Below are positions 1 through 60,796 of a stretch of 64,000 nt of DNA, piece by piece; position 1 is the stretch's first letter, and each line of letters opens with the position of its first letter. The translations under genes were made by a program, and so were the position numbers. Where the stretch lies: assembly GCA_044892525.1 (NCBI GenBank), contig CM097887.1, forward strand, positions 120,878,397-120,942,396, given 5' to 3'. This DNA comes from Schmidtea polychroa (lineage: Eukaryota). Under the pieces are notes generated by a model. It did not search any database. It saw only the letters and a list, made by a program, of their open reading frames with translations, and was not told the DNA's origin.

Positions 1-2
1 CC

Positions 3-656
3 TGTGCAACGAGGAAAAACACTGGATCGAAATGGAAAGCACCTTTGACGCCAATGCCGGTACCAATAGAGCCGATGACAATGATATCAATGGACGTAGT
101 TGGTCCATTACCGGAATCGGATAGAGGAAACGTTTATATTTTAGTGATTACAGACTTTCTCACGAAATTTCCAGAAGCATTCGCGATGCCAGACCAAAAA
201 GCTAAAACAATCGCAAAAATTTTGGTAGAAGAGATATGTTGCCGATATGGAACACCAAAACAAATATTAACCGATCAGGGAACTAATTTTATGAGTGAGA
301 TAATGAGCGAAGTAACGAACTATTTCAAAATCGCAAAACTAAGAACATCTCCATATCACCCTCAAACCAATGGGATGACGGAAAGATTTAATGGAACACT
401 TATACAAATGCTATCAAACTACGTCGATCGTCACCAACGAGATTGGGACGAATATATAAACCTATGTCTTATGGCGTACAGAATGTCGATTCACGCATCA
501 ACGAAAATGAGCCCATTTAAATTAATGTACGGAAGAGAATGTAACATGCCAATGGACCTGGAATACCACCACCGATATCGCAGTATATGGAGATCAACGA
601 TTATGTTACGAAATTCAAGGAAAGAATGCAAGAAATTTGGGAAACTGCGGGATTAA
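3..656 (+). CDS. Ty3/gypsy integrase core (frame open from the window edge; frameshifted near 563-586)
   Basis: Motifs SMDVVGPLP, ILTDQGTNFMS and PQTNGMTERFNGTL give an intact D,D(35)E triad. The frame is open from nt 3 (CATRKNTGSKWKAPLTPM). Confidence 0.95.
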   Translation, partial: CATRKNTGSKWKAPLTPMPVPIEPMTMISMDVVGPLPESDRGNVYILVITDFLTKFPEAFAMPDQKAKTIAKILVEEICCRYGTPKQILTDQGTNFMSEIMSEVTNYFKIAKLRTSPYHPQTNGMTERFNGTLIQMLSNYVDRHQRDWDEYINLCLMAYRMSIHASTKMSPFKLMYGRECNMPMDLEYHHRYRSIWRSTIMLRNSRKECKKFGKLRD

Positions 657-3367
657 ATATCAAGTTCTACCAGGAAAGTTATAAAGACTTACACGATCGA
701 AAGAAAAACGTGAAGCAACATACGTTTCAAACAGGTGATTGGGTAATGATAGAAACCCCGGAATTAATTCCAGGAACCACAAAAAAGTTACAACGCAACG
801 GAAAAGGACCATATGAGATTCTATTTGTAGGCGAAACCAATGTAAGAGTGAAATTGGTAAATAATCCATTCACCAGGCCAATATACGTGAACGTGGCACG
901 ATGTAAATCAATTCCAAAAACCGCCACCAGTCAACCGGAAGGTCGAACATTAACCACACGTTCGCAAACATACAGAATGAACATGATGCAACAACTCGCA
1001 GAACCTATCACTGGACGATTGGGCATACAACCATCGGAAGCGGAAAAAATCGTACGAGAGGTAAAGATAAAATTACCCGGATGGGCAAAAGATCGATTAG
1101 ATTTCGAAATATTAGGAGGATTATTGACGATGATCGAAAATTATGCGAACAGAGAGAGGACACATCCGTTATTGCGAGTAGTTAAAAGTCAATGGCCAAT
1201 ATTATTTACAATAACAGATCATTATGGAGACACACCATTACACAAACTCATGAAAGTAGGTAACAACGAGCAAATACTAGAAACAATAGAAGCATTTCAC
1301 GACTGCAAGCGATCAACAGAACAAGAAAACAACCAAGGTTACACACCATTAATGATAGCAGCAAACAGAGGCAAAACCAAAGACATTATAACCGCATTAC
1401 TTGATACTGGATACGAGCGGAAAAATGCACTACATCATGCTATCGAAGGGAAAAGTACCGAGGCATTCACGTCTTTGATGGAACTACTATCATATGAAGA
1501 CAATCGAGAAGTCGGAAACATGTATGATGGATTGTTAACAGCGATCAAAGAAAAACTGACAACAATTACCGGAATATTAATTACATGGAGAAATCCAATT
1601 AAAAATGATTATATGATCAACGTAAACGAAGCGTTCACGAGAGGAGAGAACACGCTGATGAGAGAAGCTATGAAAGGACATCATTTATTCGAAATCCCGA
1701 ATCAATTACTAGAACGAGGGATAAAATTCACAAATCATAAAGATGAACAGTTAGCAAAAAAGCGAATCGACACATTCGAAAAATCACTATTCCAATTTTC
1801 TAACCAAGTACGAAATAAATATTGGGAAACGGTAAGTGTGTTATATATGATGGACACAATGAATAACATCCGCGAGAATTACCTGGATATTATCCAAATA
1901 CTTACAGCAGAGGAACGAATCAATAATCCAAACGGAAAGAAAACGAAAATAAGGTATGGGAAATCAAGGGAACCAAAGTCGACAACGAACCAAACGGTCA
2001 CAAACAACGTCATCGAAACCAAATCAATGAGTATAGATCAAGAGGCAATAATACGCAAAGCAAAAGAAGTATTCTTCGAGGAAATGCTAGAGCTGTCAGA
2101 CGAAATAATATTGTCAAAAATAATAAAAGCCGTACACACATACGCAAGAGACCAAACCACGGGTTTAGATATCGGGAAAATCAAAACCTTCTTGCCTCGA
2201 GCATTTACGATGGTAACAAAGGATTCCAGAACACCTCTACAACAAGCAATACTAGCTGCAAAAGAGAATAGAGCAATAACGATCATGAGAATCCTTGGGG
2301 AGATGGGCGAAGAAACCAACACGAAAAATGAACAAGGCGAAACCGCCATGATGTATGCAGCTATAACGAAAATACACCCAAAAACACTCCACATACTACA
2401 TCAATCGGGATCGAAACTAGACGAAAGGTCCAATGAAGGAAATTCCACCTTGGACTGGGCAACCATACAGCCAAACTTAGAAATGATCAGATTTATTTGC
2501 AAAAATGCGACAAAAGAAGAAGTTGAAAATATATGCAGAAACACATCTCAATTTCAGTGGAATACGGTACGGAAAAATCTAGAAGCAATGAAATTATTAT
2601 TAACATGGAGAGTACCACAAAATAATAAATACGCGATAAATGTAAACGAATTCTACGAAAACGGAGAAAACGCGATGGTAAAGAATACATTAACTAAAGG
2701 GGGGACACCAAAAATTATTTTAATAGTATTAAACAGAGAAGACCTCAAATTCACGCAAAATCAGAACGAGCAACAACGAGTTGGAAAACATCGTCGTATT
2801 CAATTGAGAGAGTTAGTCAAAGAATGGAATAGAAAGAGACATGCTGCAACGGGTAGAAAAGAGTTTGAATTCGAAGCAAAATTAGCAAGAAACAGAGTGC
2901 TAACAGCATATCGCAGATTATTGAACGATATAAATGTCGAGGACGACATTTTAAACGACAGCGGGGGAGATAAACACGATGACAATGACGGAAAAGGCCG
3001 AAAAGAGGATAAAGGGAAAAGAGAACCGGAAGAGGATAAACCGGAAAACAAGGATTTGGATACGAAAAGAGAGGGAAACAGCCCGGGAACCAAGACCAAA
3101 GAGGAGGAAAAACCGAATAATGGAAAACAGAGGGTATGCCTACCTTTCACTAACAAAGAAATAGAGACAAATATGATATTAATGATAATTATGCTTACCA
3201 TGATAGAGTTAGTAACAGCTCATGGAGGGACGAGAACGATAAAAGAAACCAAAGAAGCGGAGAATCAAGATAGCAAAGAGGATGAACTAAAACAAGAAAA
3301 GAAAAAGCAAGCACAAGAGCAGCAGTGGGATTTAAAGGAAGAATGGGACTTAAAGGAAAGGGACTAA
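587..3367 (+). CDS. Integrase C-terminal (GPY/F, SH3-like) region fused to an ankyrin-repeat protein with a hydrophobic tail
   Basis: FQTGDWVMI..KKLQRNGKGPYEI is a typical gypsy IN C-terminus. Ankyrin consensus matches: YGDTPLHKLM, QGYTPLMIAANRG, KNALHHAIEG, SRTPLQQAILAA, QGETAMMYAAI, EGNSTLDWATI. Confidence 0.85.
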   Translation: MEINDYVTKFKERMQEIWETAGLNIKFYQESYKDLHDRKKNVKQHTFQTGDWVMIETPELIPGTTKKLQRNGKGPYEILFVGETNVRVKLVNNPFTRPIYVNVARCKSIPKTATSQPEGRTLTTRSQTYRMNMMQQLAEPITGRLGIQPSEAEKIVREVKIKLPGWAKDRLDFEILGGLLTMIENYANRERTHPLLRVVKSQWPILFTITDHYGDTPLHKLMKVGNNEQILETIEAFHDCKRSTEQENNQGYTPLMIAANRGKTKDIITALLDTGYERKNALHHAIEGKSTEAFTSLMELLSYEDNREVGNMYDGLLTAIKEKLTTITGILITWRNPIKNDYMINVNEAFTRGENTLMREAMKGHHLFEIPNQLLERGIKFTNHKDEQLAKKRIDTFEKSLFQFSNQVRNKYWETVSVLYMMDTMNNIRENYLDIIQILTAEERINNPNGKKTKIRYGKSREPKSTTNQTVTNNVIETKSMSIDQEAIIRKAKEVFFEEMLELSDEIILSKIIKAVHTYARDQTTGLDIGKIKTFLPRAFTMVTKDSRTPLQQAILAAKENRAITIMRILGEMGEETNTKNEQGETAMMYAAITKIHPKTLHILHQSGSKLDERSNEGNSTLDWATIQPNLEMIRFICKNATKEEVENICRNTSQFQWNTVRKNLEAMKLLLTWRVPQNNKYAINVNEFYENGENAMVKNTLTKGGTPKIILIVLNREDLKFTQNQNEQQRVGKHRRIQLRELVKEWNRKRHAATGRKEFEFEAKLARNRVLTAYRRLLNDINVEDDILNDSGGDKHDDNDGKGRKEDKGKREPEEDKPENKDLDTKREGNSPGTKTKEEEKPNNGKQRVCLPFTNKEIETNMILMIIMLTMIELVTAHGGTRTIKETKEAENQDSKEDELKQEKKKQAQEQQWDLKEEWDLKERD

Positions 3368-3389
3368 AAGAAAGGGACTAGGAAGATGC

Positions 3390-4184
3390 ATGTCTAGAGC
3401 GTATCAGAAACTAGTACTGATAAATGAGGACACAGAACCAATAACAGAAGTAAGAATACAAGAAGCATACCGAAATCGAAACGGGAAGAGAATAACGAAC
3501 GTTAAAGGAAAAGAGGTACACCTAGGAAAAGGTGGTGAAGTAGTAATAACGCAGCTCCAACCTAGAAAAGAGCACAAAGTCTGTATTTCAAGATTAGGAC
3601 CCGGTGAGAGATGCCATCAATATGTGACGCAGCAGCAGCCGCCGAAAGAATACACGGTTTGTATCTGGAGAAACGAATCAAAAAGAGAATGCCGACGATA
3701 CCCGGGGAAAAGAGGAAAGAAAAGAAAAAACCACGACGAAAAGGACGAAGGAGGAAAGCACAAGAAAACCGGCGAGGAAGCTCAGGACAACTATGTTTCG
3801 GAGGAAGAGATGGAAAAAATACAAAAGATGGCAAAGGAGGGTATGAACGAGGAAATAGCAAGAATACGAGAGATGATGAAAGGGAATGGCAAAAGAGGGA
3901 ACGAGAAAAGTACAGAAGCAATATCAACATTAACAAACAAGGAAAAACCAGAGAGTATAAGCGTGAAGCAGATGATGTGGATCAGTGGGATAATAATAAC
4001 AGGGGCCTTCCTAATCATAACGGGGGGAACAATAAAAATAATTAAAGATAAACGACATCGCGGAGAACTAGAGATGACCCGAATCAGAAATTTCCAACAT
4101 CGAGTGAAACGACCAAGTGATATCAAACAAGAACAGTGGGTGGAGGCCTGGAACGCTCAGCGCCCTCCAAACTCACGTATATAG
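3390..4184 (+). CDS. Element A accessory ORF, unknown; duplicated Cys-pair motif and one predicted TM helix
   Basis: 264-aa ORF in the element's A-rich style. TQLQPRKEHKVCISR..RCHQY and TQQQPPKEYTVCIWR..ECRRY; hydrophobic MMWISGIIITGAFLIITGGTI. Confidence 0.7.
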   Translation: MSRAYQKLVLINEDTEPITEVRIQEAYRNRNGKRITNVKGKEVHLGKGGEVVITQLQPRKEHKVCISRLGPGERCHQYVTQQQPPKEYTVCIWRNESKRECRRYPGKRGKKRKNHDEKDEGGKHKKTGEEAQDNYVSEEEMEKIQKMAKEGMNEEIARIREMMKGNGKRGNEKSTEAISTLTNKEKPESISVKQMMWISGIIITGAFLIITGGTIKIIKDKRHRGELEMTRIRNFQHRVKRPSDIKQEQWVEAWNAQRPPNSRI

Positions 4185-4344
4185 AAAGGAATATAACTGT
4201 ATATAATTGTAAAAAGTAAGTATATCTTATGTATATAACAGTACTATATCTGTATATAAGCGTGGTATCAATATTATACAATAACGGGAATCATAAAATA
4301 AAATTAAATTTAAATAAGAGTTGAAAAGTGTATATAAATTAAGA

Positions 4345-4704
4345 ATGGATCAAGGAAATAACGAAATGAACCACAATACAGTAACTGAAGAATTATGGAA
4401 GCAACAATGTGCCGTATTAGCACAATTAGTGTCCAATTTGCAAGAACAAGGATTGACGATGCACAGAAACCTAATCGAGAGTATGAATAGAGGATTTAGT
4501 TATTTGAAGACAATTGAAGACCAGAGGTTGAAAATCGAACAAATGCAAAGAGAGATAGAGAGGATAACCCAATATAGCCGTAGACAGGAAATTGAACTAG
4601 AAAGAATGATGGAGGAAGCAGAACAGACAGAAATAGAAGACTGGTCGGAATGGCTAATGAATAGAGAGGAGAGCGGACACGAAGCCGACTCTTCCGAACC
4701 CTAA
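4345..4704 (+). CDS. Element A accessory ORF, small coiled-coil protein
   Basis: First ATG at 4345 follows an AT-rich spacer; helical E/Q/R-rich sequence. Confidence 0.6.
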   Translation: MDQGNNEMNHNTVTEELWKQQCAVLAQLVSNLQEQGLTMHRNLIESMNRGFSYLKTIEDQRLKIEQMQREIERITQYSRRQEIELERMMEEAEQTEIEDWSEWLMNREESGHEADSSEP

Positions 4705-4789
4705 ACCAAACCTAGCTTAAAATGTAAATAATTGTAAATAAAATATCGAACCTATATCGATAAGAACTATATGTACATATAATTATAGA

Positions 4790-6178
4790 ATGGATAAACG
4801 ACAAAGAGAAGAGTTCAGAGAGATTGTTGAACGAGTCCGAAAGTCTACAACGATCAGAATACACAAACATGTTATGTGCGGAATATGTGAAAAGTTGTTA
4901 AAAGAACCTCACCAAACTCAATGTGGATGCAGAGTATGTAAAGAATGTATCAGTGAAGCAATAAAGAATAGACCACAGTGGTGCCCGGTGTGTAAAGAGA
5001 CACTAATATCGAGTTTAGAAGACACTAACGAGGATAAAGCCGCAGTGAAAGACATGTTAAACACCAACCTGGGATGCAAAAATGCCCCATGCGAATGGAA
5101 AGGAGTAATATGGAAGGTAGTACAACATATGGGAGAATGTATGTACAGAATTGGCCAGTGTGAAAGGTGCCATAAAACCATTCGAGCAAGCGAAGAAAAA
5201 GAGCATCAAAGGCAGTGTGAAGAGAGATTGGAAAGATGTGAACATTGTGGAGAAATAGATACGTGGAAAAATCTCACCCTCAAACATCACAATGTCCAAG
5301 AGGAGAGGGAATGTGCAGAGTTCAGTGGGGAATGCCCAAACGGATGTAACCAAGGGGAAATAATAAAGGTGGCACAGCATCTAAGGGAATGTGAAAAGAA
5401 AAGAATGACATGTGTACTAGGTAAATGGGGTTGTCAGAAACTACTACACCGAGGGGAGTTACCACATCATTTAGTAGAAAATGCTTCAACCCACGCAGAA
5501 ATGTGGTCGACTGCGTTACAAGAAAGCGAAGAGAAAGTAAAACAAATGGAGATAGAGATAACATCGTTGAAAGTGCTAGTCAAAGAATTACTAGAAGAAA
5601 GGGAAGCGTTCGAAGAAGCCCGAGCAAACATAAAGATGCAAATAAACCGAATAGAAATCAGTAATAATCAGGCCAAGGAGCTACATCAGAAAATACGGGA
5701 AATAAATCTAAATGAGATAACCCCAACAGCACCCTACATATGGAAAATAACGGGAGTAAAAGAAAGAATACGAAAAGCAAAACCCGGAGAAGAGACAAGA
5801 ATAACAAGTCCTGCATTCCATTCTTGGAAAAATGGGTACAAAATGAAAATGAAGATATATCCCAACGGGGACGGAACCGGATTAGATACACACTTTTCGA
5901 TTTTCTTTCTGTTATGTAAAGGGGAATACGACGAAATAATAGAGTGGCCGTTCCAGGCAAAAATCGATATTGCACTAATGAATGACCGAAGCATCCACGA
6001 ACAAAGCTTCAAGACAACTGGAAACCAAATGTGTTACCAGAGACCTACGGAAGAAGAAGGATCAGCAACAGGAGCACCTACGTTCATCCTACAACAAAAA
6101 GTAGAAGATATGGCAAGAAATGACACGGTGTATATCAAGATGACCGTGAGGAAAGAGGAGAAGGGCAGAACGGAGTAA
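4790..6178 (+). CDS. TRAF: Full-length intronless TRAF (TRAF2/3/5-like): RING, TRAF zinc fingers, coiled coil, MATH
   Basis: RING CGICEKLLKEPHQTQCGCRVCKEC..CPVC; zf-TRAF repeats (CKNAPCEW..HMGEC, CPNGC..HLREC); MATH PYIWKITG..GYKMKMKIYPNGDGTGLDTHFSIFFLLCKGEYDEIIEWPF. Confidence 0.95.
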   Translation: MDKRQREEFREIVERVRKSTTIRIHKHVMCGICEKLLKEPHQTQCGCRVCKECISEAIKNRPQWCPVCKETLISSLEDTNEDKAAVKDMLNTNLGCKNAPCEWKGVIWKVVQHMGECMYRIGQCERCHKTIRASEEKEHQRQCEERLERCEHCGEIDTWKNLTLKHHNVQEERECAEFSGECPNGCNQGEIIKVAQHLRECEKKRMTCVLGKWGCQKLLHRGELPHHLVENASTHAEMWSTALQESEEKVKQMEIEITSLKVLVKELLEEREAFEEARANIKMQINRIEISNNQAKELHQKIREINLNEITPTAPYIWKITGVKERIRKAKPGEETRITSPAFHSWKNGYKMKMKIYPNGDGTGLDTHFSIFFLLCKGEYDEIIEWPFQAKIDIALMNDRSIHEQSFKTTGNQMCYQRPTEEEGSATGAPTFILQQKVEDMARNDTVYIKMTVRKEEKGRTE

Positions 6179-6371
6179 CTAATCGAATAATGTTGTATAT
6201 AATAATCTGTATATATCGGTGTATATAACCAATAAAATATTATATAATAATAGTATGAAAACCCTAAATACGAAAACCCAAAAATGATGCAAAAATTTCC
6301 AAAGAAACAGTAAATAATGAATAAATTCCTTTTTCATAATAAAAAGATTAATCGATGTCTATGATTTAGAG

Positions 6372-7427
6372 ATGACACAAGAGAAACTAACCGAAACTGC
6401 GATAGCCCCAACCAATGTCAACAAGACACAAATTCCCCGAGAACATAACAAAAAATGGAACAAAGTAATGTTCCAACTAACTAATCTCACCCGAAATCAC
6501 ATCGAAGAAGCTAGAGAGGATGAGAATAGTCAATACCAATGGTTAATACACAACTTAAGAGCGGAAGGAGAAGCATGCAAAAGAGCATCAAAATGGGCGT
6601 CACTAGAAAATACCCGCCAAGAAGCGCACAGCCACTACTTAAAGCAGCTAGTGCAGGAAGCGAGAAAGAGACTTACCGATGAGAACACCAAGCGCGAAGC
6701 GGAAAAGCAAATAGAAGGAAGGAAAATGATGCACTTAGTGGCAGAAGCGAGAAAATGGAAAAGACAAAACAGTGAAATGAAAAAAGAGATGAAAGAATTG
6801 CCCATGAGACTCGGATATGAAAGCGAACAAGGTAAATGGGAGGAGAATTTAATAATAAAGGAAGAATTGAAACGGTTGAGAAAGGTCGCCGCCCGAAGTC
6901 AAACCTGGCAAACAAAGGCTATGGAGTTTGAGCGACATTTCGCAATAAAATGCGACATAAGAGAGCACGAGAATGCCGCAATGGAAGAGATGATAACCCA
7001 ACAAGCAGGACGGGTTGTGGAATTAGTAAATCAGGTAGAAGAGATGAAAAGAGACCTTAATGGATTACAAGGATCGTTGGAACAAAGAAACATGGTCCTA
7101 GCTGGAAAAAACAGAAAATTAGAAAACGAAAGGAAAATGTACACCGAAAATATCAAAAACTTGGAAATAGAAATTGAAAAATGGAAGGGCGACGAGAAAA
7201 TCAAGGCCCTAGATAGACAAATAGAGATGAAAGACGAAGAGACAAGGTACCTCACCTACCTGCTCGACGAAGAGCTGAACATCACTCGAGCTCTAAGAGA
7301 CGAAATTAATGAGTTGAGAGCCCAAATTCCCCAATATTACCTACCATACGACCCTATTGCGATACAGTTACATCCCGCGGTCGATAGTGATGAAGGTTAT
7401 GTAGGCCAGGAGGAAACCTTCGTATAA
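6372..7427 (+). CDS. Element A accessory ORF, long coiled-coil protein of unknown family
   Basis: Uninterrupted 351-aa E/K/R-rich helical ORF flanked by AT-rich spacers; ends ETFV. Confidence 0.7.
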   Translation: MTQEKLTETAIAPTNVNKTQIPREHNKKWNKVMFQLTNLTRNHIEEAREDENSQYQWLIHNLRAEGEACKRASKWASLENTRQEAHSHYLKQLVQEARKRLTDENTKREAEKQIEGRKMMHLVAEARKWKRQNSEMKKEMKELPMRLGYESEQGKWEENLIIKEELKRLRKVAARSQTWQTKAMEFERHFAIKCDIREHENAAMEEMITQQAGRVVELVNQVEEMKRDLNGLQGSLEQRNMVLAGKNRKLENERKMYTENIKNLEIEIEKWKGDEKIKALDRQIEMKDEETRYLTYLLDEELNITRALRDEINELRAQIPQYYLPYDPIAIQLHPAVDSDEGYVGQEETFV

Positions 7428-7593
7428 GGGTGAATAAAAGATGAAAACAAAAATCGGGACGTATATCCCAAAAAAAAAAAATTAAAGTATTGTAAAAGTA
7501 TTTAAGGGACTGTAACCCGAACTATTAAATTTTATATAAATGTATATGTATAAGTCGCACTATAGCGCACCATTAACTGTACATATTACAGAT

Positions 7594-8298
7594 ATGAAAA
7601 TCGAGGAAATAATAGAAATTACGAGCGACGTAGAAGAGGGAGAGATTGAGGCAGAAACAACAGAAACACAAACGTTAAAGGCCGAGTTACGGGAAGAGAA
7701 GTACGAAAACGAGAGACTAGTAAACAAATATATAGAAGACCGAAAAATGATTAAAATACTTAAGAAAGAGTGCGAAGTGCTAGGAGAAATAAAGAGAGAA
7801 GCCGAAGAGAAGAATGAATGGCTGCAAGAACAACGAAAACGAGGAAGAAATTGGGAAAGGATTGCAGAGGAACTATGGCAAGAGAGGGCAAGCTTCAAGG
7901 CAGAAGAAGTAATCCAGGATTATTGGAAAACAGAGGCGAAAGAACGCCAAATAACTATAAATAAATTAAATCAACAATTGGAGGAAAAACAACGAGAAAG
8001 TGAGGAAATGAAGAAATGGATTCGCAAATACCAAGAGATCGAGAGAAAACAACAACAACAACAACGAAACCTTTCGCAGGAAAACGAACAAGATTTCCTA
8101 CAAATCGAACTAAAAAGGAATCTCGACAAAAAACGGGAAGAAATTAGAAGACTGAAAAAGGAGATAAGGCACATGAAAAGGGAGGTCCGTGAAAAGAACA
8201 GACAGTTGGAAATGCTGCCCGAGTTAAGACACAGAGTCATTAAAGCGGAATCCACCTTGATGAGAATCGCCGAAAATAACCCAAATCAGAACCATTAA
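7594..8298 (+). CDS. Element A accessory ORF, coiled-coil protein of unknown family
   Basis: Long charged helical ORF; likely start at ATG 7594 after TTACAG (the track starts at 7540). Confidence 0.7.
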   Translation: MKIEEIIEITSDVEEGEIEAETTETQTLKAELREEKYENERLVNKYIEDRKMIKILKKECEVLGEIKREAEEKNEWLQEQRKRGRNWERIAEELWQERASFKAEEVIQDYWKTEAKERQITINKLNQQLEEKQRESEEMKKWIRKYQEIERKQQQQQRNLSQENEQDFLQIELKRNLDKKREEIRRLKKEIRHMKREVREKNRQLEMLPELRHRVIKAESTLMRIAENNPNQNH

Positions 8299-8353
8299 AT
8301 TAAGGGTCACTAAAACCAATTGTAAATAAACATAATGAATGTATAATAGTATC

Positions 8354-8998
8354 ATGCGAGGCGAGATGATGATAACAATGACGGTATTGATGATTCTGAT
8401 GGAGAACAAACAAGTAAACGCCCAACCGAAAATCGTACGAGATTACCGCAATCAAAATCAAGAACCTAAACAAGAATCCGGCAAATGCACATACCCTATG
8501 ACAGTAAAAACCCATATCATCCAAACCATTCAATCAACCCGATCACACATCAACAACATCCAAACAATGTGTAAAAAGAATCCCATTTGTACAATGATAA
8601 ACAAACAAATTCTCGAACAAATCCAACAATTCGACCAGTTAGAACAACAAATGCAACAAGAGAATTTTGAAAATCTTGTAGAAAAGCCAAAAACACCTCC
8701 CGAAATCAATGACACCCATTATCTCATATATGTGGTGATTGCAGAAACCCTCCTCCTATGTCTACCAATACTCATGAAGATTTACGAAGTTAGAAATAGA
8801 TGTAGAATCTCGACATCAATAAGAGTAATCTCGAACAGAAATCCTCAAGAAGTGCCACTGACAAATCTTAACCCAACCCCATTCCGACCTCGAATCCCGA
8901 GTAACCAACCAATCCAGCCGAATTCTAACAGTCAGACCTATCTCAACATCAATACCCAAACCAACCAACAGCCGCCAACAGAAGCATCAAATGATTAA
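8354..8998 (+). CDS. Element A accessory ORF, predicted type I membrane protein
   Basis: Signal-like MMITMTVLMILMENKQVNAQ, two Cys in a Q-rich ectodomain, TM YLIYVVIAETLLLCLPILM, N/Q/P-rich tail. Confidence 0.65.
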   Translation: MRGEMMITMTVLMILMENKQVNAQPKIVRDYRNQNQEPKQESGKCTYPMTVKTHIIQTIQSTRSHINNIQTMCKKNPICTMINKQILEQIQQFDQLEQQMQQENFENLVEKPKTPPEINDTHYLIYVVIAETLLLCLPILMKIYEVRNRCRISTSIRVISNRNPQEVPLTNLNPTPFRPRIPSNQPIQPNSNSQTYLNINTQTNQQPPTEASND

Positions 8999-9575
8999 TA
9001 GTTCATAAATTCTAACTCAAACATTTGTGTTATCATATGTGGAAACTTTTATTGTATATACAAACTATCACCTTAAGTGATAATTGCTTGGTCTTGATTT
9101 GACCTATATCTTAGAATAAAAATTTTTTGTTTTTGTATAAATGTTTCGATATATCCTTTTTATGAATGCATGAAGTAAGATAACTATGCAATTGCGGGAC
9201 GCAATTTTGATGGGTCCCCGAGTGATTTGTTGGGCTGAGCCGAAAGATAGCTGGGAAATCAGGTTAAACTTAACTAAAGAAAAATAAAAAAAGAAAAATA
9301 AAATAAAAAAAATAAAATAAATAGATTGAGAAATAAAATAGAATAGAATATAAGAAAAGCAATAATTAGAAAATAAGAATTAAAACAAAAAACATAAAAA
9401 TAAGAACAATTAAATAGGACAATAGAATGACGAAAAATAACGTAAAAGGTAGTAGATAATAAGGAAATTAAGGGAAATAAATAAAAACATAATTTTAATA
9501 AAGAAAATAAGAAGAAATAACCCAAAAACAAGGAAAAAAAATTAAATGAATAAAATAAGGCGGTACTCAATTCTG

Positions 9576-9609
9576 ATTGGTCCGCATAAACAAAAAATAC
9601 CTATATAAG
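9576..9609 (+). promoter_or_regulatory. LTR promoter: reverse CCAAT box (ATTGG) and TATA box (TATATAAG)
   Basis: ATTGG at 9576 and TATATAA at 9602. The same arrangement recurs in the LTR-like repeats at about 49,700(-) and 32,190(-). Confidence 0.55.
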
Positions 9610-11652
9610 TAAACAGCAAATTCACTATAGTCAATGTTAAAACCAAACCAATTATAGGTAAGAATAGTATTAACTACATAAATGTTAAAACCAAACCAAT
9701 TATAGGTACTCGACAATCAGGAAAACCAAACCATACTCAGACGACTATTAGGGACAGTTCTATAGACTACTCATTCATATAACCGATTTGATCAGTTTAT
9801 ATTTCGGCTCAGCCTTTGGAACTACAGAATTTTTCAAATAATAAAGTAAGGGTGTATTGCTGTTATGAAATTTGTTTTTGAAGGATTAAATATTTCTATT
9901 ATATTAACCTAACCTTTGAATAAAAACTTCTCCATTCGATTTCAATTTTTTAATGATTTTATAGTTCATAAATTAATTTAAAGGTTAATGATATATAAAT
10001 CTTTATGCTATGTTTTGTCATCGAACGTATTGATTATGCTAAAATTATTTTTTTGAGAAACGTGGAGTTGAGGAGACCCACGCCATGGTATGAGGAGCCT
10101 TCGGGAGCTCAGCCGGCGGGTGTGGATCTCTTCAATCACGCAGCTGACGTGGGCCGGAATGTGGGGGCTTCCTCACGGGTCCGTCGCTGAGGGAAATAAA
10201 ATGCTGCAAGCACGGGTTTAAAGTACAGAGGAATGTATTCCAATATTGAAAAGTAGAGCAAATTTGAATTGAAAATGACTGAGGTGGCTACAAACTCTTA
10301 GTAAACATTACACTCTGAAATTTCATCCGACATCAGAAATCGTATATTGACATCAACTGACATTCCATCTTTTAGCAGAAAAATATTTTTCTATCAAAAC
10401 TTACTGCGTACAAATAGGTTCATCAAATGCGAAATCAGAATATAGAGAGCATAAATAAAGATTTATTCAACAAAAGATTTGTAGCATAAATATAATTGTC
10501 AACAAACGCTGTAATTTTTCCATTGCTTCTGAAAATCCACGATAGCGGCAACGCGAGGTTCTTTCTATAAATGACTCTTTCGACCAAAATAAGAGAGATT
10601 TCTGTTGAATGAACTGCTGGGAATATTTCCCGAAATCACAACATCCAAGTTGAAAAACGGAGGGAACTGCACATCGCGAGAATAAAATTCCAACGTTCAT
10701 GCGCGGTGAGAATTACTCATAGAGAACATATTGAATAACTAAAATAATTCCAACTCGCAGTGTGAGACGATCAGCTGCAACCCGTTGACATAGATAGTAA
10801 GGAAACAGACAAGGCAAATCACACGCATTGCCACATATAAATACACACTGACATATGCCGCATGCATCCTTTTCCCAGCCCGCTGATGACGGTGAGAACA
10901 AAAATTGAAGCACACGCTCATGACATAATCATCTCCAATAGATATGTATCTTTCCGATTCATGTGGCTAATGATTTCTACGAGTGATTCATGCGTCGTCG
11001 GATGACTGTTAATAATCGACTAAATTTTATAGGTTGATTGCACTAGTAGACTCCATAATGAAAAATAAATTAATTGATTTTAGGATGGGGATAGAAATCT
11101 GATCATACGCGACTTATTAAAAATCTAACAGTAGCACGTTGATTAACCGGGTTTTCTGAATTTAATATTCAAATATGAGTTACAATTTGGGGCCATAAAT
11201 TTAAGGATCGTTCACGCGGCCCTGGAGAATTTGTTTTACGTTTTTCAAAAATAAATATCTGTAGTCGAAAAGCTATGTGCAAAAATGAGCATTAATTATT
11301 CAATCATGCAAATATTCCTGATTCTTCCTAAACCATTTCTATGGTAAACTGTAAATCTAATGTCCATTATGTCAATACATTCGCGAGTCATTTTTCACGT
11401 AAATATTTGAAAATCTCAGATAACGGTAGGTAATGAATATTTTGAGTATAACCATAAATTTTTGGCAGAGTATTATCCAAATGTTAATTTCTCTTACACC
11501 CTAAATAGACCTCTAAAAATTCACTGAATGCAATTAACACTATTTCTAACGAAACTATATCATTTATTCTTTCCCCTTTTACTTAATTTTACGAAAATCA
11601 ACAAATGATTGTGTCCATACTAGTTTAGTAGAGATCGCTGATCTTAATTCTT

Positions 11653-12303
11653 ATGCTCATTGTTTCTTTGTTACAGCTATCAACAATGTTGCCAAGCTCG
11701 AAGCCGTCGCTCAAACCCTGTTTCTCCTGTGCCGACAAAAATACCGTAATCCGAGAATTACAGGCCCAGATCGGTCGATATAAAAAGAAAATCGACGATC
11801 TGGAAGGTACATGGTTTAGCCCAGTACAAATGAAGGAGGTTCAAAAGAAATTGTACCGCAGTGAGCATTGTCGCGATGCTTTGATAAGCGAAAGTAGAGC
11901 TCAGCGTAGCCTAATCAAAGAGCAGTCCGAAGCTCTACATAAAGTTTACGTCCAAGCCGCTACAACCCGAAGGATCGTTAGTATTCCGATTAAAGAAGCG
12001 GACAATGTCTTCCCCGTTCACCATGAACCTTCATTTAGTTCGCCACCCTTGTCGAAAAGATCTTGTCAGGAATGTGTGGAGGCCGACCTCTCCCCCAGGC
12101 CATCGGACGTACCTACTCCCGGTACTGGCAAGGTATCGCATTCAGCCACGACGTCCTCGGCAATCTTGTCTGCTAACCCCTCAAAACCTAAGCGTCGCCA
12201 ATTGTCCAGAGCGGAGCGTAAGAAGCGCCAACGTGAACGGGCAATTGTCAAACAACGAGAACTATCTGCCAACCCCCAAGTGCTTCGAATGATCCACCCG
12301 TAA
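11653..12303 (+). CDS. Unknown repeat-borne ORF (CxxC, coiled coil, basic tail), copy 1; probable start ATG 11686 after a splice acceptor
   Basis: LKPCFSCADKN..QMKEVQKKLYRSEHCRD..IKEQS; two degraded homologues in the window; TTTCTTTGTTACAG acceptor ends at 11676. Confidence 0.55.
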   Translation: MLIVSLLQLSTMLPSSKPSLKPCFSCADKNTVIRELQAQIGRYKKKIDDLEGTWFSPVQMKEVQKKLYRSEHCRDALISESRAQRSLIKEQSEALHKVYVQAATTRRIVSIPIKEADNVFPVHHEPSFSSPPLSKRSCQECVEADLSPRPSDVPTPGTGKVSHSATTSSAILSANPSKPKRRQLSRAERKKRQRERAIVKQRELSANPQVLRMIHP

Positions 12304-13004
12304 CGATCGATCTGACCGTAGGAATCCCAGGGCGAATCATATCTGCCGCTGGTGTGACTTGGGAGGAGAATGCCTCCGAGTTTTTTTATCTAGAAGAGCT
12401 ATTGGCGGATGCGGGGTGGGAGAAGTGAGGGCCGCAACACAATACAACCGTGCAGGGCGCGAATGGACAAATATACTATCATGACTCCTTTTCTTCTTAA
12501 TCTATTCTCCACCAAGTGTACTTGTTATGTAGTGTATAATTATCTAATGTATCATGATAATAAAATAAAGAAATTTTTGGTTAAAATTTTGTTGTTGTTT
12601 AAATCTAACTAGCTGTGGTAAAGGTTCAGAGTAGTGTTCGCAAAGCGAGAGTAAATTTTGAGTTCGAGAGGCAGTGGTCAATTTTGTGCCGAACCATGGG
12701 TCAGGGTAGAGAGAGAATCTGATGAGGTAAACAGACGTAAGTCCTTCCAGCGGCCGTCAGAAAGGGAAGTCGAGGCCTCATTAAGGAGTAGTCCTAAGGT
12801 AGGGGCTCACCTGCTTACTGGAGTCTCGCCAGCATAGCACATTTCCAACGTGAAGCAATTCGCGGGTGCTATGTTGGAGGGCAGGTTGTGCGGGGTCCTG
12901 CTCCGGGTGGACACGGGCGTATGTAGCGTACTGATATGGACACGCATCCCCTAGACAAGGACGTAGATTGAGCAGAGTCAACCAAGCACTACCCCAGCAC
13001 AACA

Positions 13005-15992
13005 TTAATATAATAAATTATTTGTAATAAATTATTTTTAGGATTTTTATGAATTTTATGAATTTATTTGGAATTATTTCGATATATTGTAAGTCAGATT
13101 TATGTTTAACTAAAAATAAATAAAGTAATCGCGAAACACAATTCTCATTTCTTCCATAGATACATAGAAATTGGATTCAACGAAATCAAACAACTTATTT
13201 CCTGGTTCTTCTGAAATCAATTGCCTTATTGCTAACTTATACCCTTTGGAAATTTTCACATATTTTTAATACCAGAAAATTATTATTCCAATAGATTTTT
13301 TCGTGATTTCAAGTAATCTTCAAAATTCTTCGTGATTCTCAACATATTCAAAAAAATATTTTTAGTTGAGTTTTGTCATGTTCCGTAATTAATATTTGAA
13401 TTTTTTCCTGTAAATTCAAAGCAATTGAAGAACACCGTAATTAATATTTGAAATTTTATCTTTAATTCGATATTGATTGTATTCCGGTTATGTAGATAAA
13501 TCTGATGACAAAGATAATGGGGTTTCTATATCGATCAGGATCTGGTTCAACAGTGATTTTTCAGCATGTGGAGATTTTTGTTAACTCTATTAAATTTCAG
13601 ATTTTTCCGGAATTCACTTTACTGGTAAGTTCTATTTGTTGTTGAATAAATATTTTAAAAGAATTTGTTATTATGATTTTTTAAGTAAGATTTTTTTAAT
13701 TTTTAAGTAAGTTTTAAAGCTTAAATTCAAATCTCAGATAAAAATGAGATCATTATTCAAGCTCTTAAATATTACTTTTAGTCAACATTAATATTATAAA
13801 TTATTTGTAATAAATTATTTTTAGGATTTTTATGAATTTTTTGAATTTATTTGGAATTATTTCGATATAATGTAATTCAGACTTATTTTTAACTATAAAT
13901 AAATAAAGTAATCGCGAAACACAATTCTCGTATCTTCCAAAGATGCAGAGAAATTGATTGTATTCCTGTTATGCAGATATTTTTGATAACAAAGATAATG
14001 GGATTTCTATATCCATCAGGGTCTGGTTAAATAGTTTTTTTTGAGTATGAGGATATTTTTGTAAACTCTAGTTTATTTCGGATTTTTTCGGAATTCACTT
14101 TACTGGTAAGTTCTATTTGTTGTTGAATAAATATTTTAAAAGTATTTGTTCTAATGATCTTCAAGCAAGTTTTGTTTTAATTTTTAATAAACTTTTAAGG
14201 CTTGAAATCAAATCTCATATAAAAATGAGATCATTATTCAAGCTCTTAAATATTACTTTTAGTCAAAATTAATATTATAAATTATTTGTAATAAATTATT
14301 TTTAGGATTTTTATGAATTTTATGAATTTATTTGGAATTATTTCGATATAATGAAAATCAGATTTATGTTTAACTATAAATAAATAAAGTAATCGCGAAA
14401 AACAATTCTCATTTCCTCCAAAGATTCATAGAAATTGATTTCTGTTATGCAGATATTTTTGATAACAAAGATAATGGGATTTCTATATCGATCAGGGTCT
14501 GGTTAAATAGTTTTTTTTTGAGTATGAGGATATTTGTGTAAACTCTAGTTTATTTCGGATTTTTTCGGAATTCACTTTACTGGTAAGTTCTATTTGTTGT
14601 TGAATAAATATTTTAAAAGTATTTGTTCTAATGATTTTCAAGCAAGTTTTGTTTTAATTTTTAATAAACTTTTAAGGCTTGAAATCAAATCTCATATAAA
14701 AATGAGATCATTATTCAAGCTCTTAAATATTACTTTTAGTCAAAATTAATATTATAAATTATTTGTAATAAATTATTTTTAAGATTTTTATGAATTTTAT
14801 GAATTTATTTGGAATTATTTCGATATAATGAAAATCAGATTTATGTTTAACTATAAATAAATAAAGTAATCGCGAAAAACAATTCTCATTTCCTCTAAAG
14901 ATTCATAGAAATTGATTTCTGTTATGCAGATATTTTTGATAACAAAGATAATGGGATTTCTATATCGATCAGGGTCTGGTTAAATAGTTTTTTTTTGAGT
15001 ATGAGGATATTTTTGTAAACTCTAGTTTATTTCGGATTTTTTCGGAATTCACTTTACCGGTAAGTTCTATTTGTTGTTGAATAAATATTTTAGAAGTATT
15101 TGTTATAATGATTTTCAAATAAGTTTTATTTTAATTTTTAATAAACTTTTAAGGCTTGAATTCAAATCTCAAATAACAATGAGATCATTATTCAAGCTCT
15201 TAAATATTACTTTTAGTCAACAATAATATAATAAATTATTTGTAATAAATTATTTTTAGGATTTTTATGAATTTTATGAATTTATTTGGAATTATTTCGA
15301 TATAATGTAAATCAGATTTATGTTTAACTAAAAATAAATAAAGTAATCGTGAAAAACAATTCTCCTTTCCTCCCAAGATGCATAGAAATTGATTGTATTC
15401 CTGTTATGCAGATATTTTTGATAACAAAGATAATGGGATTTCTTTGTCGATCAGGATCTGGTTTAATAGTGAATAATAGATCATTATCATTTTAAGGATT
15501 TTTATGAATTTTATGAATTTATTTGGAATTATTTCAATATAATGTAAGTCAGATTTATTTTTAACTATAAATAAATATAGTAATGATATTTAATGATATT
15601 TATATAATGATATTTATATAATGATATTCAAATAATGATATTTATATATCGATCAGGGTCTGGTTTAATAGTGATTTTTGAGTATGTGGAGATTTTTGTA
15701 AACTCTAGTTAATTTTGGATTTTTTCGGAATTCACTTTACTGGTAAGTTCTATTTGTTGTTGAATAAATATTTTAGAAGTTGTTGTTAGAAATGATTTTC
15801 AAGTAAGTTTTTTTTTAATTTTTAAGTTACTTTTAAGGCTTGAAATCTGATCTCACGTAATAATGAGATCATTATTCAAGCTCTTAAATATTACTTTTAG
15901 TCAACATTAATATTATAAACTATTTGTAATATATTGTTTTTTGGATTTTTATGAACTTTTCTGAAATTATTTAGAATTATTTCGATATAATT
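13005..15992. repeat. Tandem satellite, about 477-481-bp unit, about 6 copies (first and last irregular)
   Basis: Marker GAGATCATTATTCAAGC recurs at 13746, 14227, 14704, 15181 and 15865. Confidence 0.92.
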
Positions 15993-16121
15993 TAAGTAGT
16001 TGATGCTAAATTATTAGTAAGTCCCGTGTGTGATGAACCATTAGTATTAGCCGATCATGAACTTGGTCTTAATGCTAGAAGTGCAGTTTAATCATTGAAA
16101 ACTAAGGAAATTTGCTATAAT

Positions 16122-42037: not shown

Positions 42038-42597
42038 TTGGGCTGAATTGAAATAAAAAATAAGAAAATAACATTAAGAAATAGTACAAACATGATAAAC
42101 AAATCAGGAAAAATAAATGTGATGAACTGTTTTTGCTTGTAGTATCTATGTTCTTCTTGTATATTGGCAATTAAATAAACAATTTTTGTTTAAATCCTTG
42201 GGTTTTGTTTTGTGTAATGTTATTTTTTTTTATTTTTCTCTACCACCGGAAAGGAATAATTTTGTTGGCTGAAATCTTCGAATAGTATATGACGGATACC
42301 GAACTCAGGAAACGATGGAGTATCGAGTATAGAGAAGTAGTGAGACGTAAGAGATTCTATCGGTAGTCAGGGAAAGGAAAGTCGAGGCTTCAGGAAAGAG
42401 TAGTCCTAAGGCAGGGGCTCACCTGTTTTCTGGTGTCTCGCCGGCATAATACAGTACCAACATGAAGCAGTTCATGGGTATTATGTTGGAATATAGATCG
42501 TGTGGAGTCCTACTCGAGGTTGACGGAAAAGGGAAAACGTGAGTGTAACAGACCATCATCCTCTAGACGGGACTTAAAAGTCGTTTCAGTCAACCGG
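42036..42597 (+). repeat. Truncated LTR of the TGTTGGGCTGA family
   Basis: TGTTGGGCTGAA start; shares GAGTAGTCCTAAGGYAGGGGCTCACCTG and flanks with 12735-12990. Confidence 0.65.
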
Positions 42598-55564: not shown

Positions 55565-56611
55565 TGTTGGATGACAGAGGAAGAAGAATCGAAGAGTTTG
55601 AACTAACACATTACTATAGAACGGGCAGCAACAAGTTCAGAATCAATATATACGTAGAGCCCAGATAACTCAAGCCGGACAAATCAAAACAATTATCATT
55701 ACAATTTGATTACTGACTTATGTACATTAGTTATTTATCGGACTATTATTTTATGACAATTATTATTACGGTGTTTTATATTATTTTATCAATGTATCTT
55801 ATTTATTTTATGGATTTTATGTTTGATATTTCATGTAAATAAAACATAGTATGGGGATTAATTAAATAATTAATATCAGTATAGCTACAAAATACATAAT
55901 ATTGAAAATAATAAAAATATAAGTGGACACTTTAAATAATTGAAAAACATATGTTTTAAAATCATAGGAGCATGAGTGGTTCTCGAGTCGTGGGAACATA
56001 ATAATAATTAATAGCAATAATAATAATTTTAGTAATAATAATAATTTTAATTTTTTTATCACAAATTTTTAGCAATCATAAATAATTTTAATATTTTAAT
56101 TTTTAGCAATCATAAATAATTTTAATATTTTATCACATAACAATAATCAATTTTGTAGCAATTATTTAATAAGCATGTATATAAAAATATATTAATTTCT
56201 TAATTATATTTCACTTCTTAAGTACACTTGAAAAATATAACAATTTAATTTCATATACAAAAAAAGTATAAATAGCGAGTCAAAATTCATTTTTTTCGCC
56301 CCAAAATTTTAACCGCGTTAACATACTAAAAAGGTTAATCCTTATTAGTGCTAAAACTCGAACAGACAAACAGAAACGTTCAAAAGCCTACACGCAACAC
56401 AGCAAGAGAATACATAACATTCACACAGTACATACAAGCATATTCGGTTGGATATTTGAAGGATTTTTGGATTTTTGTAACCTAGCAACAAATTCATATT
56501 GGTAAATTTTTCTTTATAATAAAAGTTTTATAAATCACTTTGTCTTTTGATATATTTGTACATATATAAGAACCAGTAAGTTGAGTGTTCCCGAATATCG
56601 AGACCTCAACA
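55565..56611 (+). repeat. 5' LTR of element B
   Basis: No differences from 60693-61739 seen by eye; identical 66-aa shadow ORFs offset by 5,128 nt. Confidence 0.97.
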
Positions 56612-56613
56612 TT

Positions 56614-56631
56614 TGGTGCCGCGAACCGGGA
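56614..56631 (+). promoter_or_regulatory. Primer binding site TGGTGCCGCGAACCGGGA
   Basis: Starts with TGG 2 nt after the LTR; resembles the complement of tRNA-Phe 3' ends (TGGTGCCGAAACCCGGGA), less so tRNA-His. Confidence 0.85.
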
Positions 56632-56850
56632 CTTTAAAATCAATTATTGTTATTCACAATTTGGGGGATAGGAATTGAGATCAGAGGGTATAGTATTTTA
56701 TATTGGGAAAATATATTTATAAAAATAATATCATTGATCAATTTTTAAATAAATAAATTCAGTTTTGAAAATTATTAAATAATTCAAAAAGATAAAATAG
56801 ATAATCAACCCTAAATAGTTTATAATCTCAGAAATAGAATAGTCTATAGG

Positions 56851-59247: not shown

Positions 59248-59630
59248 TAGCAAGATACAAGAAACTTTTGCGATTGAATCCAAAGAATCAAATAGAAAAT
59301 ATCGCTAAAATGATATATAATAAATTAAAGATAGATGCTATGCCATGGATAAAATTAAAGGGAGGATGGAAAATACTGTATGATGAGAGTCTAATCGAAA
59401 GTGCTCAGGAAAGCGTAGAAGATAATATTAATGTAGAAATAGATGATACGGAGGAAACAGTAAAAAATCTAGTAAATAAAACAACTATGAAACCAAGTCA
59501 AAAAGAAAGAAAGTCGACAATGTCAATAGTAATTATAGTAATAACATTGTTATTAGATCTGATAAAAGGGCAATCATGTTCGTCGATGTCAAAGAAGTAT
59601 GCGACATCAATAACAATCTCAGACCAGTAG
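59235..59630 (+). CDS. Element B ORF2 (possibly the frameshifted tail of ORF1), ending in a hydrophobic signal-like segment
   Basis: 13-nt overlap with ORF1; MSIVIIVITLLLDLIKGQ. Confidence 0.5.
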   Translation: MAYLIARYKKLLRLNPKNQIENIAKMIYNKLKIDAMPWIKLKGGWKILYDESLIESAQESVEDNINVEIDDTEETVKNLVNKTTMKPSQKERKSTMSIVIIVITLLLDLIKGQSCSSMSKKYATSITISDQ

Positions 59631-60796
59631 AGATATGCATCAGAAATTTTAGAGGAGAAATCGTATACAATAAAAAGGTGACTCCACGCACCAAAATCCA
59701 ACATTATTACCCGGAGAAGACAAGAGCAGACAGAGATTCGATAAGAGGAAACGAAGACGAATACCAAGCGCTGATCGACATACAGAAGCTGCTACTCGGA
59801 AAAATCATTGTGGGATACGAAATAATAAAGAAACTCAAGACGCTGACATTAGATCTGTACAATGTCATGGGAGTCAGAGAGTTAGCTGATGATGTGTTCA
59901 TGTGTTCATTCGTCAAAAATGTAGCACCACACAGAATCAAATTATCGAATCTCGCATACAAAGTAATCGCAACACACCCAAAATGGAAGAAAGACAAAGC
60001 AATCAACAACATCCTCAAAAAACCCGAACCGTTCTCAGCAGAAGATACAACACTAATCGCAAAAGTCATCTACCTTTTGGTCGAGAAGCAGTGGGAAGAA
60101 GTCATAAGGTGGGACATGACAGCATTCCAAAAGGATAATGGCCATCAACTCAGTCCAATAGAAGAAAACAGCGATGAGCCAGAGGAATTTGAGGAAGATA
60201 TATATATCGAACCCTCACAAAGAGAATTGAAATTCAATAAAGATGGGAGCAGATGTACCTTTGAAGATGAACTAATAGACAGCGATGATGACATCATATT
60301 CGTCAAAGAGGACAAAAAACCACAAGCAATCACAATAAAGGAAGAACCTCAGACATCAAGTAGTTACAACTATGCCGACCCACAATGTGATTTAGACTCG
60401 GATGAAGAATATTTCTCACCGAGCGAAGCAATGCAGATAGATGACGAACTAGGACCAGAGCCAAATGTCGAGTTGGAGGAGCCAATGTTCATCATCAAAG
60501 AGGGAAGATCCACTATCTCGGAAAAAGAAATACATCAACACTTCGGTAGACGAATTATTGATGGTGATGTGTTAAAATTGGCATTAAAGAAAGGATTCCA
60601 AAGAGCAACAATGTATATAAACGGTTGCGAAATCGAATTGGTCCTTAGCGATAAAGGTAATGAGGACATTACTTTATCGGCCCTAGGAGGAGTGTTGGAT
60701 GACAGAGGAAGAAGAATCGAAGAGTTTGAACTAACACATTACTATAGAACGGGCAGCAACAAGTTCAGAATCAATATATACGTAGAGCCCAGATAA
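59576..60796 (+). CDS. Element B ORF3: REX4/ISG20-like DEDDh exonuclease fold (catalytically degenerate) with acidic tail; ends inside the 3' LTR
   Basis: MFVDVKEV, VEICIRNFRGEIVYNKKVTP, IQKLLLGKIIVGYEIIKKLKTL, VRELAD, KLSNLAYKVI and PFSAEDTTLIAKVIYLLVEKQWE are colinear with the REX4 motifs. Confidence 0.8.
   Translation: MFVDVKEVCDINNNLRPVEICIRNFRGEIVYNKKVTPRTKIQHYYPEKTRADRDSIRGNEDEYQALIDIQKLLLGKIIVGYEIIKKLKTLTLDLYNVMGVRELADDVFMCSFVKNVAPHRIKLSNLAYKVIATHPKWKKDKAINNILKKPEPFSAEDTTLIAKVIYLLVEKQWEEVIRWDMTAFQKDNGHQLSPIEENSDEPEEFEEDIYIEPSQRELKFNKDGSRCTFEDELIDSDDDIIFVKEDKKPQAITIKEEPQTSSSYNYADPQCDLDSDEEYFSPSEAMQIDDELGPEPNVELEEPMFIIKEGRSTISEKEIHQHFGRRIIDGDVLKLALKKGFQRATMYINGCEIELVLSDKGNEDITLSALGGVLDDRGRRIEEFELTHYYRTGSNKFRINIYVEPR
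60685..60692 (+). promoter_or_regulatory. Polypurine tract AGGAGGAG
   Basis: Directly abuts the TG of the 3' LTR; short, and lies inside ORF3 (LGGV). Confidence 0.7.

Follow-up and report, generated by a model that had tools for sequence, protein, structure and literature searches.

A Burro-type gypsy retroelement family of Schmidtea polychroa with conserved accessory genes, including a full-length TRAF

Planarian Burro elements exceed 30 kb and carry an ORF1 (open reading frame, ORF) of 4,873 amino acids with Gag, Ubi/SUMO-like and BCL2-like parts, an in-frame env, MATH_TRAF_C, BIR and ankyrin (PMC6431247). The same motifs were noted in Burro-2 to Burro-4, and meddling with host apoptosis and ubiquitination has already been proposed (PMC6431247). 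The IAP of Burro1 is described as anti-apoptotic and as protecting planarian stem cells in the available passages of PMC13465017, which cites Lee et al. 2026, and those of PMC8532177 place BURRO1 and BURRO4 under PIWI control. The DNA considered here is a stretch of 64,000 nucleotides of Schmidtea polychroa (assembly GCA_044892525.1, contig CM097887.1, positions 120,878,397 to 120,942,396 of the forward strand), called the window at its full length. A Burro-type gypsy long terminal repeat (LTR) element of about 30 kb is represented in it by the 3' two-thirds of one copy, which carries an internal deletion and frameshifts. This family combines a gag-env-pol-ankyrin-membrane polyprotein with five accessory genes conserved by selection; it seems rather probable that one of these, a likely host-derived TRAF, props up survival or stress signalling in host cells expressing the element. 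A preliminary description of this DNA knew of no TRAF-plus-ankyrin cargo elsewhere; such a cargo is not new, because PMC6431247 already lists both for Burro, and the architecture was largely annotated there. In the literature, covered at the level of listings and partial texts, no report was found of the spacer motif described below or of a separate full-length TRAF gene, and Grohme 2018 or Lee 2026 may already map a downstream TRAF ORF. What appears to be new is the selection acting on all of the cargo, a full-length TRAF gene common to this family and a Burro1-like one, and the spacer pattern.

The element is assigned to Ty3/gypsy by its pol order of protease (PR), reverse transcriptase (RT), RNase H and integrase (IN), its paired LTRs with TG...CA ends and its short target-site duplication (TSD), and to the Burro type by a length of about 30 kb, one giant polyprotein with env between gag and pol, and an ankyrin and TRAF-C cargo. 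Five copies in four regions were read whole for the family architecture. The full copies total about 30 kb, with LTRs of 4.16-4.20 kb where unnested, LTR pairs 99.4-99.97% identical and TSDs of 4 bp; undeleted copies span 29.5-30.2 kb, about 22 kb of it internal. Seven nucleotides past their 5' LTR stands a stretch starting with TGG that resembles a tRNA-Pro primer-binding site (PBS), and this stretch is deleted from the window copy. The giant gypsy retroelement announced earlier is gypsy and belongs to a family of about 30 kb, but the copy in the window, at 17.6 kb, is itself not giant because of an internal deletion.

The undisrupted polyprotein measures 4,617 amino acids and is unbroken in two of the five copies read whole. 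In one such copy, the domains follow one another as Retrotrans_gag, zf-CCHC, Monjiviricetes_fusion (PF24664), RVP, RVT_1, RT_RNaseH, Integrase_H2C2, rve and Ank_2, and a transmembrane (TM) stretch comes last. The fusion glycoprotein stands in frame between gag and PR in the full copies, and because of it the virus-like character claimed at the outset is stronger than first thought. Weak Pfam matches below the cut-off lie before env (ubiquitin, E 0.013; Bcl-2, E 0.029), and a PDB search returned no match for this part. The polyprotein would be cut by the element's own protease, and the element would copy itself by its RT and integrase.

In the window, which opens within the integrase, the end of this PR-RT-RNase H-IN frame is the integrase core (3-575, forward strand; Pfam rve, E 7e-14), and all three motif stretches of an intact DDE integrase are present, as first described. 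Seven stop-free ORFs follow on the same strand, again as described, the last one ending at 8998. The ankyrin and TRAF domains seen in them are real (Ank_2, E 2e-17; MATH, E 3e-26), but the ankyrin ORF and the first membrane ORF, initially taken for separate cargo genes, are frameshifted pieces of the polyprotein tail. The first (587-3367; 926 amino acids) comprises the integrase C-terminus, two ankyrin blocks scoring Ank_2 and a hydrophobic signal-like stretch, and a frameshift near 3365 splits off the second (3390-4184; 264 amino acids), a Cys-containing predicted ectodomain with one TM-like hydrophobic stretch and a short tail. Among 35 sampled copies (about every fourth rank of the list of MATH matches, which biases the sample toward intact TRAFs), the frame from the ankyrin region to the TM tail, at about 4184 in the window, is unbroken in 22. 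Since it runs through in undisrupted copies, both segments are parts of the polyprotein, and a separate ankyrin gene is ruled out, the ankyrin region being continuous with it. For the last polyprotein domain, a fibronectin-III-like fold was suggested by a by-eye resemblance and was not confirmed, the AlphaFold model (4 sequences; pLDDT 32) being unusable; the ESM Atlas gave no usable match, and no fold search was made.

Five true accessory ORFs follow the polyprotein, all on the forward strand. ORF119 (4345-4704; 119 amino acids) belongs to no known family and has a homolog, 31% identical, at the same place in the Burro1-like family. Next comes the intronless full-length TRAF (4790-6178; 462 amino acids) with RING, zinc fingers, coiled coil and MATH, the RING scoring weakly in Pfam. 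CC351 (6372-7427; 351 amino acids) and CC252 (7540-8298; 252 amino acids, with a conserved start probably at 7594) have coiled-coil-like compositions, and CC351 has a homolog of 31-34% identity in the Burro1-like family. The last, TM219 (8339-8998; 219 amino acids), is a predicted type I membrane protein with a signal-like N-terminus, a TM stretch and a variable tail. An LMP1-like module, in which the element's own membrane protein would recruit its own TRAF, was considered and rejected, the motif-like stretch at the end of the TM219 tail being missing in divergent lineages. Besides the accessory ORFs, the LTR contains an ORF of about 249 amino acids (11653-12303 in the window; also in the full copies) that is conserved between both LTR types of the family (66-74% identity in the lineages compared) and has no Pfam family. 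In both families, a RING ORF of 161-178 amino acids is placed after the 5' LTR and ahead of gag (for example at 1383-1916 of region L031); the RING it encodes shares 38% identity with the one in the sister family's IAP.

The cassette recurs across the genome, searched as a 781-Mb assembly in which the window lies on contig C3. For the TRAF DNA, all 40 scored places, out of 356 candidates, match at 96-100%, and in a protein search all 150 scored places match its MATH domain at 85-100%, most of them in open frames of 478 codons, which gives at least 150 copies; a word-based protein search retrieved one relative among 3,892 candidates. All eight segments are found in 27 of the 35 sampled copies, and ORF119, TRAF, CC351 and CC252 stand in this order in 34. 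Two LTR types exist, 80% alike at the start and 66% in the LTR ORF, and their interiors are near-identical, which indicates recombination between lineages. Selection was estimated by pairwise Nei-Gojobori dN/dS over pairs with dS of at least 0.3, restricted to copies in which at least 85% of a segment could be matched without a stop (29-33 of the 35 per segment, 21 for TM219); some values of dS come close to saturation, and the pairs are not mutually independent. The ratio is 0.01 for IN, 0.06 for each of the two ankyrin blocks, 0.13 for the polyprotein tail, 0.10 for ORF119, 0.11 for TRAF, 0.08 for CC351, 0.07 for CC252 and 0.25 for TM219, the fastest-evolving of all the cargo, so that the cargo spans 0.06-0.25; the bootstrap upper limit for the most distant pair is at most 0.36. 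Every cargo protein is clearly under purifying selection between replicating lineages. On contig C4 (46226001-46296000), two tandem copies 99.98% alike over 34 kb were also seen, spaced by 26.2 kb, with shared LTRs, an insertion in each LTR and the start of a third interior; they represent either tandem amplification or an assembly artefact.

A BIR search of the same genome gave 150 scored matches, most of them in frames of 392-393 codons. The element concerned, read in two regions, consists of the upstream RING ORF, a polyprotein, a 151-aa ORF, a 474-aa TRAF, a BIR-RING gene, two coiled-coil ORFs and a membrane ORF; its polyprotein has a MATH between Gag and env, and open frames of up to 4,791 amino acids occur elsewhere in the genome. 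This family fits the published description of Burro1, and by sequence comparison the window family is its sister, the two being 88-90% identical in RT-RNase H and 30% identical in their TRAFs. In the window family, no BIR or IAP ORF was found in six copies read over their whole or nearly whole length, and a Pfam scan of an undisrupted copy found no MATH within the polyprotein.

Planarian host TRAFs are required for homeostasis and cell survival (available passages of PMC8807557 and PMC7586133), and those of PMC6109357 report the family as expanded. The window TRAF finds its best PDB matches in TRAF3, TRAF1 and TRAF2 (E ~1e-27), and its RING matches TRAF6, TRAF5 and TRAF2; by its domains it is a TRAF2/3/5-like member of the TRAF family. 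This RING keeps all its ligands, with a Cys in place of the usual His (CGC-type), and zf-TRAF was scored in the sister family's TRAF. Among ten sequences looked up, the closest named ones are TRAF-2 and TRAF-4 of the planarian Dendrocoelum, and the CGC-type RING occurs in 12 of 13 host-context TRAFs checked. The host-context TRAFs comprise intronless full-length genes, 27-31% identical to the element TRAF, and two-exon clusters. A tree was built from 48 rows: 7 host sequences, 5 Burro TRAFs, 18 CGC-type database rows and 18 CGH-type ones (the first of 62). In it, the Burro TRAFs cluster with a single unnamed protein (SH-aLRT 93), and this cluster belongs to a larger group that also takes in host and Dendrocoelum TRAFs (94). 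T makes up 16% of third codon positions in the element TRAF versus 30-34% in three host TRAFs, and the codon composition of the cargo gene has come to follow that of the element. The simplest reading of these sequences would be a single, old capture of the TRAF from a planarian one, predating the separation of the two families. Contig C2 also harbours large clusters of host TRAF-like genes with two exons, at about 105-124 Mb and 1-5 Mb, and separate intronless full-length TRAFs were seen on C2 and C4.

The spacers between the accessory ORFs share a distinctive pattern. Six of them, 41-229 nt long, lie on the forward strand within 4185-9227, one after each stop, and each contains one to four TGTAHATA words (13 in total), along with AATAAA, which is present in most spacers. 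The 13 words in 909 nt compare with 0.76 in dinucleotide shuffles, none of 500 reaching 13; two more are on the opposite strand of the window spacers, and the coding parts and the LTR are free of the word. Spacers of a divergent lineage hold 11 where 0.72 are expected, and the sister family's hold 8 where 0.79 are expected. All 12 sense-strand words of one 30-kb copy fall in the spacer zone, and in the sister family 8 of 14 matches fall inside spacers and 6 outside. The top-ranked gapped 8-mer common to the spacers of both families is TGTANATA. In a shared-word null without low-complexity words, none of 300 simulations rose above 5, versus 9 observed, whereas with A-runs allowed the observed shared count was reached in 12 of 200. 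Across 10 related divergent copies, motif cells depart from the window in 48 of 840 cases, and the remaining spacer cells in 778 of 5,600. No TGTAHATA occurs in 4,400 nt of 3' flanking DNA from 22 host TRAF frames, which is T-rich and not A-rich. The first motif stands 13-22 nt past the stop in 8 of 13 spacers. In four of five window spacers, the ATG that follows has an AG no more than 5 nt ahead of it. A tally over 11 spacers gives 10 with such an AG versus 2.3 expected (0 of 5,000), a count for which the start codons were chosen by the analyst, partly by conservation; the host control gave 3 of 12, with several starts uncertain.

TGTAHATA corresponds to the Pumilio element, and it also includes UGUA, a word of 3'-end formation. 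On these signals, the accessory ORFs are likely made from short subgenomic single-gene mRNAs: TGTAHATA and AATAAA in the spacers would serve 3'-end formation or Pumilio control, and the AG before ATG would serve splicing, either in cis or by spliced-leader (SL) trans-splicing. A bolder version is offered tentatively, as a possibility that is more doubtful than sure. The Burro cargo may be run as a host-style operon, a single long transcript being divided into mRNAs of one gene each by SL trans-splicing or adenovirus-like leader splicing at the AG, with Pumilio gating after the stops. The full-length TRAF, kept by both families while the IAP was gained or lost, may be the signalling weapon that an env-bearing endogenous virus of planarians has carried longest. 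In two runs guessed to be RNA, contigs over the cassette are mostly 90-95% alike, with no canonical GT..AG joint among those shown, which is evidence neither way.

Several points speak against a host-derived TRAF serving survival signalling and against this mode of expression. The tree supports of 93 and 94 are unstarred, a tree of the MATH alone left the monophyly of the Burro TRAFs unresolved (37/79), and the CGC RING also occurs in seven rows outside the planarian group. The TM219 tail has no TRAF-binding-like motif conserved across lineages. The spacer motif was originally spotted by eye, no RNA record is listed among the sequence sets holding the cassette, and neither splice junctions nor poly(A) sites were seen for the spacers. 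The MATH stretch aligned to the serine-rich receptor-binding loop of TRAF3 differs from it and varies between lineages, and because of this divergence the partners of the element TRAF need not be the canonical ones. The diverged loop, next to RING ligands that are all kept, would also suit the same element using its TRAF as a decoy or destroyer, which would poison host TRAF trimers or ubiquitinate innate-immune adaptors and so damp antiviral or stress signalling. The fusion glycoprotein and other virus-like cargo point the same way, as does the lack of an IAP in the six window-family copies read. Such a role is nevertheless considered rather unlikely, as purifying selection (0.11) acts on the TRAF in its entirety, MATH included, and the tested cargo of the sister family is reported as pro-survival in the available passages of PMC13465017, citing Lee et al. 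2026.

The spacers themselves could instead be internal promoters. Every accessory ORF would then be transcribed as a small unit by itself, in the manner of large DNA viruses, and the motif would be no RNA element. The T variant, found in 8 of the 13 window motifs, overlaps a TATA-like word, and the A variant, found in 7 of 9 sister-family motifs, resembles a forkhead site; AATAAA in most spacers is also in keeping with promoters. This alternative is regarded as unlikely, since the fifth motif position may be A, C or T and the other positions hardly vary, as in the Pumilio element, since the location of the first motif follows the stop ahead of it and not the start after it, and since an AG precedes the ATG far more often than expected. 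Least credible of all is that the ORFs have no role for the element, either as host genes that were transduced recently and are carried along passively, or as a host cluster of TRAF and ankyrin genes adjoining the remains of an integrase. Intronless full-length TRAFs do exist in host context (7 frames), but they are only 27-31% identical to the element TRAF and differ in third-position T as given above, and the cargo lies between LTRs in many dispersed copies with dN/dS far below 1. These data refute passive carriage, and the host cluster is ruled out by copy number, collinearity and selection. The cassette is cargo of the element, as the preliminary description had it: it is multi-copy, collinear, bounded by LTRs with TSDs and under purifying selection.

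The window copy is a young but defective, non-autonomous element. Its coding strand is A-rich over positions 1-9000 (AT skew +0.28 to +0.55), in contrast to the remainder of the window, and A makes up 38-46% of every one of the six ORFs measured, which bears out the A-rich coding style noted earlier. In the 40 kb examined upstream, the pol frame starts 2.7 kb before the window with RVP, RVT_1, RT_RNaseH and Integrase_H2C2; the integrase frame is interrupted near 567-575, and a further frame break besides that near 3365 lies upstream of the protease. The 3' LTR, whose start had been noticed after the ORFs, occupies 9228-12999 on the forward strand (3,772 bp, TG...CA) and is of the second of the two LTR types. 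It is 96.8% identical to both LTRs of one full copy and has at least 40 genomic matches. Upstream, as the preliminary description had proposed to check, a truncated 5' LTR of 1,588 bp, 99.6% identical to window positions 9228-10815, was recovered together with PR, RT and the TSD, whose 4 bases (13000-13003, forward strand) are identical to those just before the 5' LTR. Compared with a full copy of the same LTR type, about 11.9 kb are missing, namely the rest of the 5' LTR, the PBS, the upstream RING ORF, gag and env, and the copy cannot be autonomous because PBS, gag and env are absent. No clear polypurine run was found ahead of the 3' LTR. The insertion site is a satellite array of units of about 477 bp, and the empty-site context is seen in other satellite units. 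The array (window 13000-16000 and upstream DNA) extends over about 19 kb, with a 477-bp unit and a 1,251-bp higher-order repeat, and is interrupted by the element. Short diverged matches to the LTR end and the LTR ORF at 42343-42524 and 63402-63466 suggest older related LTR fragments.

A second LTR element lies at 55565-61739 of the window. It measures 6.2 kb, with 1,047-bp LTRs 100% identical and a 4-bp TSD. Its 810-aa Gag-like ORF is 30% identical to the N-terminus of the Burro Gag; it also has a weak Bcl-2-like match (E 0.014) and an ORF of 438 amino acids that belongs to no family. Neither pol nor env was seen in this element, and it looks like a very recent non-autonomous relative. From 40 to 22 kb upstream of the window, ORFs resemble by eye Maverick/Polinton genes (DNA polymerase B-like and packaging ATPase-like).

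How the five or six downstream ORFs of a 30-kb LTR element are expressed is a question to which the spacer pattern offers a concrete, testable answer. Element-borne TRAF/MATH copies, at least 150 plus those of the sister family, could confound counts, RNA-seq mapping and RNA interference of planarian TRAF genes, and the passages seen of the planarian TRAF literature (PMC6109357, PMC7586133) do not link TRAFs to elements. The TRAF expansion is not only element-borne, because host TRAF clusters exist too. If the operon with its TRAF weapon were true, hundreds of element TRAF copies would feed host survival signalling and inflate the reported expansion. As the IAP is absent and the full TRAF is kept, the window family is the natural comparison for which cargo matters and for mutualism beyond one gene.

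Flatworm operons resolved by SL trans-splicing have gaps under 300 bp, according to the available passages of PMC12582326. The element resembles them in its same-strand genes less than 300 bp apart, with spacers of 41-229 nt and an AG near the starts, whereas those operons are made of host genes of parasitic flatworms, and no trans-splicing was seen in the element. With planarian host TRAFs (Dendrocoelum TRAF-2 and TRAF-4, and the expanded family of PMC6109357), the element TRAF shares the RING-zinc finger-coiled coil-MATH order, the CGC-type RING and about 31% identity, but the host genes stand outside LTRs, an intron is present in many of them, and the spacer motif is missing from their 3' flanks. 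The Dugesia tigrina Burro-like element (PMC6431247) likewise has a polyprotein without MATH and a TRAF-C in a separate accessory ORF; there, the ORF is upstream and the polyprotein has 5,140 amino acids, whereas the TRAF of the window family lies downstream of one of 4,617. Burro1/GYPSM1 (PMC6431247) and the window family are alike in a length of about 30 kb, multi-kb LTRs, a single polyprotein of 4.6-4.9 thousand amino acids, accessory ORFs and the presence of TRAF-C, and their polyproteins share Gag with CCHC knuckles, in-frame env, PR, RT, RNase H, IN and ankyrin, with Ubl-like and BCL2-like parts as candidates in the window family. The window family differs in having neither a MATH within the polyprotein nor a BIR-RING (B-IAP) ORF, only the short RING ORF upstream of gag; its TRAF is solely the separate downstream full-length gene, and the LTRs differ. 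Burro-2, -3 and -4 are said to carry the same motif set with a BCL2-like motif (PMC6431247), a likeness by description only, and the window family may be one of these three or a counterpart in a related species.

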